The notes below the pieces were generated by a model. It had not been told where the DNA came from, made no database searches, and saw only the letters and a list, made by a program, of their open reading frames with translations. From positions 1 to 50,141 of IMG/VR virus record IMGVR_UViG_3300030099_002171: a DNA stretch of 50,141 bases; one strand, 5' to 3'. The position numbers and the translations under genes are program-made. Positions 23,413-35,427 of this stretch are shown here, in pieces. Numbering within the stretch: the stretch's first letter is position 1; each line of letters begins with the position of its first letter. This DNA is from a virus. Taxonomy: Duplodnaviria; Caudoviricetes.

Positions 23413-23538
23413 AAAAAGTCCCTGGGTCGCGGTGTGCCAACTACTATCATCAGCCCGAAGGGCTACTATCATCGCGTATGCGATGTGGATTCACCGAGTA
23501 TCAAGTACTTGTCGATAGACAATACACAGGGATACGAG

Positions 23539-23860
23539 GTGTACCGAGTGTACCAGCAGTGTACCGGCTGTTTTACAGCCTACTGGTACACCGCAAAAAG
23601 GCTTTTTTACTTAGTTTTTTTCCAAAAAACAGAATTTGTACCAGATGTACCACGAGTTTAGCGTTAGCTTTTAGAGATAGACCATAGACCGTGGTTATAA
23701 AATCATGTTTGTTTTGTACTTTTACCGGTACAAATGGTACACCCCCAAAGAATCCTAGCTATCGCAAGGGTTTCCGGTGTACCAGCTACATTTTAGTTCT
23801 GGTACACCTTTTAAGCTATTGTTAATAGAATCAGTAGCTTAGGGTGTACCAGGGTGTACC
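23539..23860. repeat. Iteron-like field of 12 TGTACC/GGTACA copies (putative replication origin)
   Basis: 12 copies counted in both orientations, several forming inverted repeats (23776-23785 / 23799-23808). Confidence 0.8.
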
Positions 23861-23938
23861 ACAAACTCGCCATTGTTATCCAACAATGGCTCGAATCTAA
23901 TTATATTAGAGTAAATATTACTTATGGAGATACATAAT

Positions 23939-29609: not shown

Positions 29610-30000
29610 ACATATGCCTGATTATATGTCTAACAACTTAAGCCATGCGGCTAAAGTTGAAATGAAACGAGCAAAGAAACATGGAAGACTAATGGGAATG
29701 GTAAAAGAAAAAATGCAAGACTTTGAAGACAACTACAAAGATTTCTTTGATCAATGTTGGTCAGAGTTTAGTCAACTTCATCCTAATCCTAAAGTAAAAA
29801 TTTTAAGTCTTTTATTAGAAGAAGATGTAACTTATTCAGAAGCTTGTTTTGTGTATTTTAGTGAAAATTTTAGTAATTATATGTACAACAGTGCTGCGAC
29901 TAAAGAATTAGAAGCAGTAGTAGAAGAAGCTTTTGAGAACGAATATCCATTTTTAGAAGACTACTATGAACAATTTATTGAAAGATTCAAATTATCATAA
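29566..30000 (+). CDS. Hypothetical protein
   Basis: ORF within the early operon; probable start at 29593. Confidence 0.55.
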   Translation: MNLFARIYLMKKYFEHMPDYMSNNLSHAAKVEMKRAKKHGRLMGMVKEKMQDFEDNYKDFFDQCWSEFSQLHPNPKVKILSLLLEEDVTYSEACFVYFSENFSNYMYNSAATKELEAVVEEAFENEYPFLEDYYEQFIERFKLS

Positions 30001-30130
30001 GTTTGTATGGCAAATGTACAAAGAAAATTGTAAAGAAAGATCTTATTACAATGAACAACCATACAATACTGTTGATGAATATGAACAAGATCACAGAAAT
30101 TTTTTAATAAAAGCTTATCGTAAGACTTAG
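29966..30130 (+). CDS. Small hypothetical protein (54 aa; not in the ORF track)
   Basis: MNNLLKDSNYHKFVWQMYKENCKERSYYNEQPY...YRKT*. Confidence 0.55.
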   Translation: MNNLLKDSNYHKFVWQMYKENCKERSYYNEQPYNTVDEYEQDHRNFLIKAYRKT

Positions 30131-30557
30131 ATTGATACGACCGAGGAGGCCAGAGCTCCAATTGCAGCGTAGATTCGCGGCCCGTTGCCCTCTAGACACC
30201 ACATCTAATTTTTACATCGTAAGAGTTAAGTTGATACGACCCTATCGTAAGTAGGGATACCTGGTAAGGTGTATTCTTTGTAAAAAGCGAGAATGGTTTT
30301 AAGTGAGGCTCTATAATACACAATAACCTCACCCTTGCCCGATAGCAGATACCAAGCTTAACTCTTACACTTAACACTAGCAGTGGTTAGTTGATACGAC
30401 CGGTTGTTCGACCTAGTGCGACTAGAGGTCCGAGAGCGTAAACGATTCGAACCAGCTATCTATAATTTACAACTAATGCTTTTACTAGCATAATTAGTCC
30501 AAGGTGATTTGATGAATCACACGATAGCGGATGCCCTGATACCAAGCTAACTGCTGC
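30120..30557 (+). ncRNA. Putative structured ncRNA array of three units with a conserved internal loop
   Basis: TTGATACGACC at 30132, 30231 and 30391, each facing YWGAYACCA at 30193, 30346 and 30536; flanking stems differ in sequence but keep pairing. Confidence 0.7.
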
Positions 30558-30563
30558 CCTGAA

Positions 30564-30645
30564 TTCGGCTCGCAAAATCCGAGAAAGGAGTTTGAGTAGA
30601 GAGCCGAGGGTTTAAATATAACCTTTTCATAGCTACTCAAACTCC
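30564..30645 (+). promoter_or_regulatory. Stem-loop / possible H-type pseudoknot upstream of the 30666 gene
   Basis: 13-bp GGAGTTTGAGTAG/CTACTCAAACTCC stem crossed by TCGGCTC/GAGCCGA. Confidence 0.55.
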
Positions 30646-30665
30646 GCTTAACATAGGAGAAAAAT

Positions 30666-31262
30666 ATGTATAGAAATGCCCATATGTACAACAATGCAGA
30701 ATCGCGTTGGTGTGATGAACAAGGAATACCCTATGTTCGAGATGGTTATTCTTTTGGCCCTGAAGAAATTAGAGATCTAATATTACAAAAAGAATATTAC
30801 ACTCTTGGGCGTTACAATAGATTTATTGATCTATTTCGTAACGGTAAAATGAAACACAAAGATGTTTTTCAAGAAGATGAATGGCTTATTATTCATCATA
30901 GTCAACGATATGTGCGTGCTCAAATAAAAGAATTTGGCCCGCGTAACGGTCGTATGAAAGTGCATAGATACAATGCTTTTGCCCAACAACAAATACCTAC
31001 AACAGATTATTTTACACATGAAAATAATATAGTTGTTCCTATGCACCATTATCCTTTAGACCATGGTAATGGTTACCCAGAAAAAGATTCTTGGAGTTAT
31101 AGGAAAACATATTACGCTAGTCCTTTTACTTGGGAAACAATTCCAATTAGACAACAAGTAGACAGAGCGGCTGAAGAAAGAACTTGGTTTGTTCCAGACT
31201 ACAATATATTTGCAGTAAACAAAGAAACTTTATTTAAACTTAAACTATTAGGAGCACAATGA
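30666..31262 (+). CDS. Hypothetical protein (aromatic-rich)
   Basis: 198 aa, AGGAG RBS. Confidence 0.7.
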   Translation: MYRNAHMYNNAESRWCDEQGIPYVRDGYSFGPEEIRDLILQKEYYTLGRYNRFIDLFRNGKMKHKDVFQEDEWLIIHHSQRYVRAQIKEFGPRNGRMKVHRYNAFAQQQIPTTDYFTHENNIVVPMHHYPLDHGNGYPEKDSWSYRKTYYASPFTWETIPIRQQVDRAAEERTWFVPDYNIFAVNKETLFKLKLLGAQ

Positions 31263-32673: not shown

Positions 32674-33135
32674 TTAAGTAAAGTACCCATAAACTGTAAT
32701 AGTACCAGCAGCACCTGTAGCAGGTCCAACTTGTACGTGAATATCAATAGTAGTATCTGCACTGAACTCAATTGGTTCGATTGCATCATCATCAGCACTT
32801 AACGAACTGAATAATTCAATACCACCACCTTGAGCAATAGTAGATCCATCTTTAATTGCAGTAGAAGTACCTGTAGTTTCAGTATCAGTATTTGTATGAC
32901 CGATATCTAATACAATTGCAGGAGATCCATTTGTGTCAAGATCAGTAGATACTACTCTTAATGCGTGCAGAGTCTCCCCAGCAAAAGCATCTAGAGCTTG
33001 TATTACATCATTAAGCACTAACACAGGAGTAGTAATTGTAGCTTTTCTTACAAACATTTGCCCTTCAGGGAAACCTTTAAAAGCTTGATTACTTTCTACG
33101 TTACCACTTTTTCTTAGAGTTGCTATTGTAGCCAT
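32674..33135 (-). CDS. Putative capsid decoration / minor structural protein (inverted, isolated)
   Basis: 153 aa, beta-rich; DLDTNGSP...LDIG...GTITVYGYF; AGGTG RBS. Confidence 0.55.
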   Translation of the reverse strand: MATIATLRKSGNVESNQAFKGFPEGQMFVRKATITTPVLVLNDVIQALDAFAGETLHALRVVSTDLDTNGSPAIVLDIGHTNTDTETTGTSTAIKDGSTIAQGGGIELFSSLSADDDAIEPIEFSADTTIDIHVQVGPATGAAGTITVYGYFT

Positions 33136-33443: not shown

Positions 33444-35242
33444 ATATAATTACACTAGACTTCGAAACTTATTACGATGCTCAACACTCGTTAAAGCATC
33501 TTAATACTGTGCAATACGTTAACTCAGATCTATTTAAAGTATGGGGCGTAGGCATAAAACTTAATGACAAGCCTACAGAATGGTTCGGCCCCGAAGAATG
33601 TACTGAAGCTATTCGAGCTATACAATGGGATGACGCCGCAGTTGTTTGCCACAACACACTGTTCGATGCCTATATACTTACACAGTACTACAAAGTGCAG
33701 CCGGCATATTACTACGACACAGCGGCCATGGCTCGTGGTATATCGCCAAATGAAAGTGCCTCATTAGCCAACGTAGCCGAACGTTTATTTCCACAAGATA
33801 AAACTATGCGTAAAGGCGATGAACTTGTTAACGCAAAAGGTATTTTTGACTTACCACCAGACATCGAAGAACAAATAGCTGGATATTGTATACAAGACGT
33901 AGATCTTACTTATGCAATATTCAAGGTTATGCTAGGCAACTACCCACAAAAAGAACTCGACTTGATTGATTTAACATGTCGAATGTTTGTGCAACCTAAA
34001 ATATTTTTAAATAAAAATTTATTAATAGCACACAAAGAACAAGTAGCTGCTGAAACAGAAAGTAAAATTGCAGCAAGTGGATTAACCAGAGAACAACTAG
34101 CCTCACAAAAACAATTTGCACAATACTTAACTGACGAATTATCAATTGTATTACCAACTAAAAAAAGCCCACGTACAGGTGAGCTCATACCTGCTTTTAG
34201 TAAAACCGATGCTGCTTATGTACAGATGTGTAACATGTACCCACAATACCAACACATCTGGGATGCCAGGGAGGCTGTAAAGTCACGTATCGAAGAAACG
34301 CGTGCCCAAAGATTATTAGATGGTTGTAATCCAGATGGTACTTTATCTGTGCCTTTAAAATATTATGCAGCACACACTGGCCGGTTTGGTGGTAGTGAAA
34401 AGATAAACTTACAAAACTTACCACGTGGATCTAAACTTCGTAATGCAATACAAGCGAGCTCTGGAGAGATGCTGTATATCGCAGATTTATCTAACATCGA
34501 AGCGCGTATGCTTGCTTGGTTAGCTAAAGAAGATGATTTAGTACAAGCATTCGCTGCAGGTGAAGATGTATACAGCAATTTTGCTAGTCAAATATATGGC
34601 AAAAAAGTTACTAAAGAAAATAAACTAGAAAGGTATGTAGGTAAAACCGCTATTCTTGGATTAGGTTATGGCATGGGGGCAGACAAATACCAAGCTATAC
34701 TCAAACAGGGATCTCCATCTATTGATGTAACAAAAGATACTGCATTAGGTATTGTCACTCAATACCGTGCTATGTACCCAAACATCCCTGCGTTATGGAG
34801 TATAGGTAAACAGTTACTATTTTCTATGTTAGATAGAACTGATATGAATACATCCTATGGGCCCTTAGCTGTTGCAAGTAATGCACTTAAGTTACCTAAT
34901 GATATGTATTTACAATATCCTCACTTACGATTTAATGCCGGCGAATTCGTGTATGACTCTGGTAGAAATGGTATTACACGTACGCATGGCCCTCGGTTGG
35001 TTGAGAATATTGTACAAGCATTAGCTCGTATAGTAATTACCGACCAAATGTTAACTATACAAAAGTTACCAGGAATACACGTTGTATTGACAGTTCATGA
35101 TGAAATCATTGCGTTAGGTTCAGATATGAATCCGAATGACACATTGAATAAAATTATGGCTATAATGACTACTCCACCTAATTGGTGTTCAGATTTACCT
35201 CTAGACGCCGAAGGATCATACAGCAAAATTTATGATAAATGA
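33440..35242 (+). CDS. polA: DNA polymerase family A with 3'-5' exonuclease
   Basis: ExoI DFET, ExoII HN..FD, ExoIII YC..D; HTGR, NLQNLPR; motif A DLSNIEAR, motif B K...LG..YG, motif C VHDE. Confidence 0.95.
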   Translation: MNIITLDFETYYDAQHSLKHLNTVQYVNSDLFKVWGVGIKLNDKPTEWFGPEECTEAIRAIQWDDAAVVCHNTLFDAYILTQYYKVQPAYYYDTAAMARGISPNESASLANVAERLFPQDKTMRKGDELVNAKGIFDLPPDIEEQIAGYCIQDVDLTYAIFKVMLGNYPQKELDLIDLTCRMFVQPKIFLNKNLLIAHKEQVAAETESKIAASGLTREQLASQKQFAQYLTDELSIVLPTKKSPRTGELIPAFSKTDAAYVQMCNMYPQYQHIWDAREAVKSRIEETRAQRLLDGCNPDGTLSVPLKYYAAHTGRFGGSEKINLQNLPRGSKLRNAIQASSGEMLYIADLSNIEARMLAWLAKEDDLVQAFAAGEDVYSNFASQIYGKKVTKENKLERYVGKTAILGLGYGMGADKYQAILKQGSPSIDVTKDTALGIVTQYRAMYPNIPALWSIGKQLLFSMLDRTDMNTSYGPLAVASNALKLPNDMYLQYPHLRFNAGEFVYDSGRNGITRTHGPRLVENIVQALARIVITDQMLTIQKLPGIHVVLTVHDEIIALGSDMNPNDTLNKIMAIMTTPPNWCSDLPLDAEGSYSKIYDK

Positions 35243-35427
35243 GTACATTACTCTTAACTAGAAAAGTCCAAGAAGGCGTTGTTATACACATAGAAGAGCT
35301 GGGCGAGATCGTCTGTGAGATAACAGTTACAAAAGTTGGATCAAAAAATGTTAAACTAGCATTCAAAGCAAGAGACGAAATAAAAATAGATAGGAAAGAA
35401 ATCTATTTAAAAAACAAGGAGAAATAA
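35239..35427 (+). CDS. csrA: CsrA/RsmA-like translational regulator
   Basis: LLLTRKVQEGVVI...ITVTKV...VKLAFKA...I.I.RKEIY parallels CsrA LILTR..GE...I...VTV......V.IG..AP....VHREEIY. Confidence 0.8.
   Translation: MSTLLLTRKVQEGVVIHIEELGEIVCEITVTKVGSKNVKLAFKARDEIKIDRKEIYLKNKEK

Follow-up and report, generated by a model that had tools for sequence, protein, structure and literature searches.

Three adjacent RNA units in the genome of a tailed phage belong to a real, conserved family of modular cassettes carried by uncultured marine phages, in which a constant handle encloses a payload that differs from unit to unit. The family is probably a new and previously uncatalogued kind of modular phage RNA-protein system, with an architecture unlike that of known array systems. 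The sequence analyzed here (the window, all 50,141 nt of it) is a virus record, 84% complete, whose genes include a P22-like portal, a family A polymerase, a CsrA-like gene (35239-35427) and an AAA ATPase/VWA pair. Among named phages, its closest but distant relatives are KPP25-like phages of Pseudomonas (54% for the capsid, 34% for the polymerase), and no GenBank phage matches the window at the DNA level. The array occupies a gap without genes on the + strand, between a 54-aa ORF and a 198-aa ORF (Table 1), where G+C content is 44% as against 34-35% in the flanks. Promoter and terminator scans gave matches at chance level only, and ARAGORN finds 0 tRNA genes. Elsewhere in the genome, short GTGTACC/GGTACAC repeats cluster in both orientations at 23535-23865, within the large gene-free stretch preceding the early genes, and possibly mark an origin or operator region. 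The sole opposite-strand gene of the early region (32674-33135, - strand) encodes a 153-aa protein of no known family and is conserved in relatives.

Table 1. The RNA array and adjoining features, in window coordinates
Feature	Position	Strand	Details
54-aa orphan ORF (YxxFxxxMYxxNCxER...Y), candidate handle-binding protein	29966..30130	+	Last codons and stop codon within the unit 1 outer stem
Unit 1 (payload class A)	30120..30215	+	Outer stem 30120-30131/30204-30215; boxes 30132-30142, 30193-30203; payload 30143-30192
Unit 1 pseudoknot	P1 30148-30151/30179-30182; P2 30164-30169/30183-30188	+	Pairing backed by compensatory changes across 20 distinct class A units
Unit 1 self-complementary loop, GAGCUC	30153..30158	+	Candidate homodimer (kissing) site; palindrome kept in class A 20/20
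Unit 2 (payload class B)	30219..30368	+	Boxes 30231-30241, 30346-30356; 104-nt multi-helix payload; z = -4.50
Unit 3 (payload group C)	30380..30557	+	Boxes 30391-30401, 30536-30546; 134-nt payload; conserved loop AGAGGUCCGA at 30424-30433
Fourth structured module, without handle	30561..30647	+	Directly 5' of the next ribosome-binding site; z = -4.60
198-aa gene, no known family	30666..31262	+	Usual 3' neighbour; another gene often intervenes before the array

The handle consists of an outer stem of 11-15 bp (mostly 12-13) closing an internal loop of 11x11 nt, which is followed by an inner stem of 2-6 bp whose first two pairs are always paired and covary. Outer stem sequences diverge widely across units with pairing kept. 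Within the class A alignment, 99.6% of outer-stem cells are paired and two-sided changes are found in 8 of the 12 pairs; over the whole structure 95.6% are paired, against 26-38% when the alignment is slid as a control, and because the aligned sequences are related, shuffle counts are not to be read as probabilities. G-U pairs outnumber A-C pairs on the + strand (15 vs 4 in 31 distinct outer stems), in agreement with the strand preference proposed in the preliminary description of this DNA. Both strands of the loop are 11 nt long and share the consensus YWGANACNA, so that the loop is pseudo-two-fold symmetric, a property missing from that description. Neither strand departs from G3, A6, C7 and A9 in any of 61 distinct handles, and A4 is present in 121 of the 122 strands. 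This symmetry suggests that the loop is either bound by a dimer or cut twice. The single bulged base reported earlier was an error on two counts: T30132 of unit 1 had been counted in both the stem and the box, and the homologues carry two bases (AG, CA, CC or CG) after ACCA, which makes the loop 11x11 nt. Most of the linkers between units (e.g. 30369-30379) have a conserved UAAYAC or UUAACG immediately 5' of the following stem, and this sequence may serve as a site for a nuclease or protein.

On re-examination of the window, the coordinates and stems of all three units match their first description, and the recomputed identity between the 5' ends of units 1 and 2 is again 23/26 nt. Exact copies of TTGATACGACC occur three times (30132, 30231 and 30391), where about 0.02 are expected per 50 kb by arithmetic; at two mismatches the motif is not enriched (8 observed vs 9.16 expected), so the signal lies in the exact copies plus the architecture. 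Compared with shuffles, the fold of 30110-30660 has z = -4.16 on the + strand and -2.85 on the - strand. When units are folded singly, unit 3 (z = -2.59) joins unit 2 (Table 1) below its shuffles; unit 1 has z = -0.79, not significant, as would be expected if it is a pseudoknot beyond the reach of the folding program. A possible long-range pairing in unit 2 (30269-30275/30315-30321) is without covariation support among just 4 near-identical variants. The conserved loop of unit 3 is not palindromic and includes the heptamer contacted by vertebrate Ro60. The units of the array are almost certainly structured RNAs.

To define the family, relatives were collected via pattern scans and three neighbouring proteins, and a unit descriptor made of the two boxes and the outer stem was run over 1.33 Mb of collected loci. 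The descriptor returned 196 matches, representing 77 distinct units and 50 distinct arrays with that of the window included, and 0 matches in one mononucleotide shuffle of the same DNA; 9 of the 93 matches of the first pattern scan were true. Among the best 80 of 162 loci reached through a 113-aa neighbour, 61 have canonical units and 3 have a diverged unit found solely by a covariance model. The other 16 have no unit, and most of these differ in gene order, the matching site possibly lying outside the locus. A class A model run over five whole unit-less records (42-77% complete) found nothing, 0 of 117 loci from a metagenome scan (3 of 64 parts) had a unit, and cellular genomes yielded two chance pattern matches and no relative of the neighbour protein. 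Arrays hold one to three units in varying order: of the 50 distinct arrays, 21 are C, 11 AC, 7 CA, 4 CH, 3 BC, 2 ABC, 1 CF and 1 CAF. A C-type unit is present in all 50 canonical arrays, and unit classes are gained, lost and reordered between phages. The original proposal of a phage-encoded family of + strand structured RNAs, with a constant handle and differing payloads, is thus borne out by the descriptor, covariation and G-U bias.

Comparison with Rfam 15, a check proposed at the outset, gave 0 matches in the window at the gathering threshold and none over the array at E <= 10; six homologous loci, in which classes A, B, C and H are represented, gave 0 at E <= 2, and one diverged locus gave weak matches only, all below gathering. 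No Rfam family matches the element. Literature searches, with subscription journals largely outside their coverage, found no description of it. The readable tables of the viral candidate structured RNAs of Fremin et al. 2023 (PMC10690425) contain no match to the motif; pieces of the array may stand unnamed in its alignments.

The payloads fall into five classes with conserved folds. Class A has 20 variants of 50-60 nt and class B has 4 of 104 nt; group C, with 48 variants of 108-190 nt, is heterogeneous and made of sub-modules, while F has 2 variants and H has 3. The interiors had been called unrelated, which is correct inside the window and incorrect across phages, where each interior is a conserved family. 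Class A is a pseudoknot in which compensatory changes keep both helices paired in 20/20 variants, apart from two single mismatches. Its first loop is self-complementary in every unit, reading GAGCUC, GAGAUCUC or GAGUACUC, and in one C subgroup the loop palindrome is kept 17/17 through a two-sided change from UCCGGA to UCUAGA; any 6-mer palindrome occurs at about 41-44% in shuffles. In OLE and GOLLD, loops that kiss between molecules are reported to carry this palindrome-switching signature (PMC12286853). Adjacent bases are unable to pair within one chain, and the palindromic loops are candidate homodimer sites.

Two roles first considered for the payloads can be rejected. Guide or antisense RNAs had been proposed; the payloads have conserved folds with compensatory changes, and their comparison with the rest of the genome gave no matches beyond chance, which argues against guides directed at the phage itself. 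A link to csrA was the other. Sponge RNAs such as CsrB and RsmZ present many GGA motifs in loops, and this phage encodes a CsrA-like protein, but GGA is depleted in the payloads (85 vs 140 in shuffled sequence; each unit of the window has one) and csrA is present also in relatives without arrays, which removes the sponge role.

Candidate partners among the neighbouring genes were the ORF at 29966, the gene at 30666 and csrA. The linked gene is the first of these. A small ORF of one family (49-67 aa), its stop codon -7 to +4 nt from the first box, accompanies 50/50 arrays, which do not amount to 50 independent events because the arrays come from related phages. The 54-aa protein is modelled as three helices (pLDDT 92.6), and members of its family are aromatic-rich and not strongly basic, with net charges from -4 to +7. 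It belongs to no Pfam, PHROGs or PADLOC family, its best sequence match to solved structures has E = 0.03, and credible fusions are absent. A Foldseek search with the model found no PDB match and unnamed viral look-alikes only. Separately, VIA matches peaked at Z = 4.1, and Atlas matches stayed < 0.9.

Co-occurrence of array and small ORF had seemed perfect until contradicted by the covariance model. Four more distant contigs of one lineage (L274, L279, L280 and L473) have a class A unit and no such ORF nearby. In these four, A4 is changed on the 5' loop strand and one base is lost from the 3' loop strand, while the stem, the pseudoknot and the self-complementary loop are retained despite the altered handle loop. 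A whole-record search in three of these records (32-48% complete) found no match to the ORF, which could sit elsewhere since the records of the lineage are 32-48% complete where this is known. A loop conserved on account of the protein would be expected to change, as here, where the ORF is absent nearby, yet this represents one evolutionary event. The small protein has a second subfamily, found in an unrelated contig (L110, 1690-1854; proteins P0041-P0043) that has no recognisable unit. On balance, we lean towards the small protein as a binder of the handle.

Part of the stretch is present in 11 of 13 listed RNA runs, from 8 studies, and the libraries are marine. From a single sample, two runs yielded contigs that match the window without a difference at 30119-30357 and 30119-30324; both begin 1 nt 5' of the first stem. 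A second study supplied a contig covering 30191-30384, and in a third a contig from a relative spans the whole region. Such contigs record presence only, and not ends, strand or level, with DNA carry-over possible. Flanking genes are without cover in 3 of 4 examined runs, which was not counted as evidence since the runs had been found by the stretch itself. Joints that would mark processed or circularised RNA were not seen in four RNA assemblies, whose contigs drop rare forms. The array is likely transcribed, and contigs across the junction of units 1 and 2 and across the whole region disfavour complete cutting into single units, with the reservation that a contig is not a transcript.

The explanation that we prefer, tentatively and somewhat short of an even balance of belief, is that the constant handle is bound by the 54-aa protein and carries exchangeable payloads, which are trimmed to stable small RNPs and, working in trans, mimic host factors or serve as decoys. 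The array would be co-transcribed with the early operon, behind the small gene, and two copies of the small protein would bind the two equivalent strands of the loop. The short A/U-rich linkers would then be trimmed, with the stem and the protein shielding the ends, and some of the payloads may homodimerise via their palindromic loops. Once assembled, the payloads would act in trans on the host; this decoy or mimic role is suggested by their accessory-like turnover and otherwise by analogy. A bolder version, which we consider rather doubtful, holds that two copies of the protein, a new fold, clamp the symmetric loop and mature or protect the inserted RNA, and that the swapped, self-dimerising payloads are decoys, each for a different defence or regulatory protein of the host. 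Were this version true, payload swapping would resemble the swapping of anti-defence proteins by phages.

A different reading of the same symmetry, unlikely in our judgment, is that a host enzyme processes the handle, either RNase III-like or by a double cut, releasing and perhaps circularising the payload, with the ORF a mere neighbour. An outer stem of about one helical turn and a two-fold symmetry that fits a dimeric nuclease are both in keeping with this, as are the units without an adjacent ORF, and the same cut in both boxes followed by ligation would rebuild a box. Archaeal bulge-helix-bulge motifs are cut twice at two equivalent positions in this manner, but the loop here is 11x11 and not 3-4-3, the RNA assemblies contain no joint, and the loop is altered exactly in the lineage without an adjacent ORF. 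We think it quite unlikely that the units are instead cis elements of a polycistronic early mRNA, which would block exonucleases, stabilise the message or, at the end of the small gene, let its protein regulate its own expression. Every array has its stop codon overlapped by the first stem, many relatives have 17-26 nt between the last unit and the next start codon, and RNA contigs span units, all of which would suit a cis role; five conserved payloads, their reordering and the palindromic loops would be left unexplained by it, and the downstream genes differ between relatives.

Invariant loop bases in a compact pseudoknot, as seen here, are a typical mark of ribozymes and riboswitches, and the handle or a payload could on that basis be a new self-cleaving ribozyme or a small-molecule-binding RNA, which would let the array cleave itself or sequester an immune signal. 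We consider this very unlikely, because no Rfam family matches even weakly over the array or its class A, B, C and H homologues and because self-cleavage has no need of tight linkage to a protein gene. Highly improbable is the mimicry of Y RNA by group C payloads, sequestering host Ro60. GGUCCGA, the heptamer that X. laevis Ro60 contacts (PMC4201824), appears with free flanking bases in 29/48 C units, but it is missing from the other 19, sits in an internal hairpin loop rather than at the 5' end, and is a 7-mer match spotted post hoc and hence a weak lead; the bacterial motif GNCGAAN0-1G is unmatched in the window's unit, and a tRNA-like domain and a TROVE gene are absent. The idea that the repeats function as DNA, as operators or hairpins for recombination, is scarcely credible, since gain and loss of units exactly at shared stems is satisfied by ordinary homologous recombination, and loop palindromes that are also DNA palindromes come with a strand-specific G-U bias, covarying pseudoknots and presence in RNA libraries.

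Returning to handle-bound, exchangeable payloads, known constant-handle RNA arrays (CRISPR, TIGR, box C/D) carry base-pairing guides, and the variable part here is a folded RNA swapped between close relatives like an accessory gene. In working, the array is likened to Y RNA and Ro60. Bacterial and phage Y RNAs (PMC4201824) join a terminal-stem protein-binding module to a variable functional module and are encoded beside the protein gene, with several RNAs per locus. Unlike them, the window has no Ro60/TROVE gene (PF05731 is absent from the 84%-complete record), no tRNA-like module (the ARAGORN result above, and no YrlA match over the array) and no 5'-end GNCGAAN0-1G. It has instead a handle with a symmetric 11x11 loop, a 54-aa orphan as partner candidate and tandem, swappable units. 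GGUCCGA, in its internal hairpin loop, is confined to the C units, occurring neither in the handle nor in other classes. In layout, the likeness is to TIGR-Tas, in which phages have stem-closed units in tandem next to a protein gene, with pseudo-symmetric boxes (PMC12045711); the boxes here contain UG and CCA, comparable to TIGR box D (UG) and box C (CCA). Assignment to TIGR-Tas was nonetheless rejected. There are no paired variable spacers of 8-12 nt between box C and box D, the interiors being conserved folds of 45-190 nt, and the Nop domain (PF01798) is absent from the 84%-complete record, where the adjacent gene encodes 54 aa. The array thus lacks what defines either system, namely the tRNA-like module and TROVE on one side and the spacers and Nop on the other.

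OLE, ROOL and GOLLD are likewise phage-associated, pseudoknotted RNAs of obscure function with palindrome-switching loops, but they are single large RNAs without a common cassette handle (PMC12286853), and the units here are 90-240 nt long and have no Rfam match. A precedent for the decoy role is the pseudo-ToxI of PhiTE, a phage array of pseudoknot RNAs, variable in copy number, that counters host defence by mimicry (PMC3594212). Its repeats are given there as 36-nt, near-identical and without a handle, in contrast to payloads that are mutually unlike. A type III antitoxin or pseudo-ToxI array was rejected, since the units differ among themselves, ranging over 96-178 nt within the window, and match neither ToxI nor Rfam. 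A retron or other RT-linked ncRNA was also rejected, PF00078 being absent from the 84%-complete record.

If the pairing of handle and protein is real, it would provide a minimal natural tag (~50 nt plus 54 aa) to stabilise or present any RNA fold, and the payloads would list candidate RNA-based counter-defences of marine phages. The parts are small, and their synthesis and testing would be feasible within weeks, with no host required.

Structured RNA near the array extends beyond the units. The fourth module (Table 1) is a predicted pseudoknot formed by 30565-30571/30601-30607 and 30587-30599/30633-30645, the second stem of which covaries in two relatives (L023 and L050). It is found in the window's clade, is duplicated in some relatives (L006, 2596-2780) and has a related copy before a different gene (L293, 6-95); the duplication and the other gene context indicate that it moves independently. 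An HDV-like ribozyme was considered for this module and rejected, as it is without the P3/L3 element of that ribozyme. Among contigs of the altered-loop lineage (L274 6700-7130, L279 6700-6890, L280 6670-6850, and L473), the unit ends an island of repeated handle-less modules that are probably pseudoknotted. These modules match no Rfam family at threshold, and loop palindromes are present in some of them.
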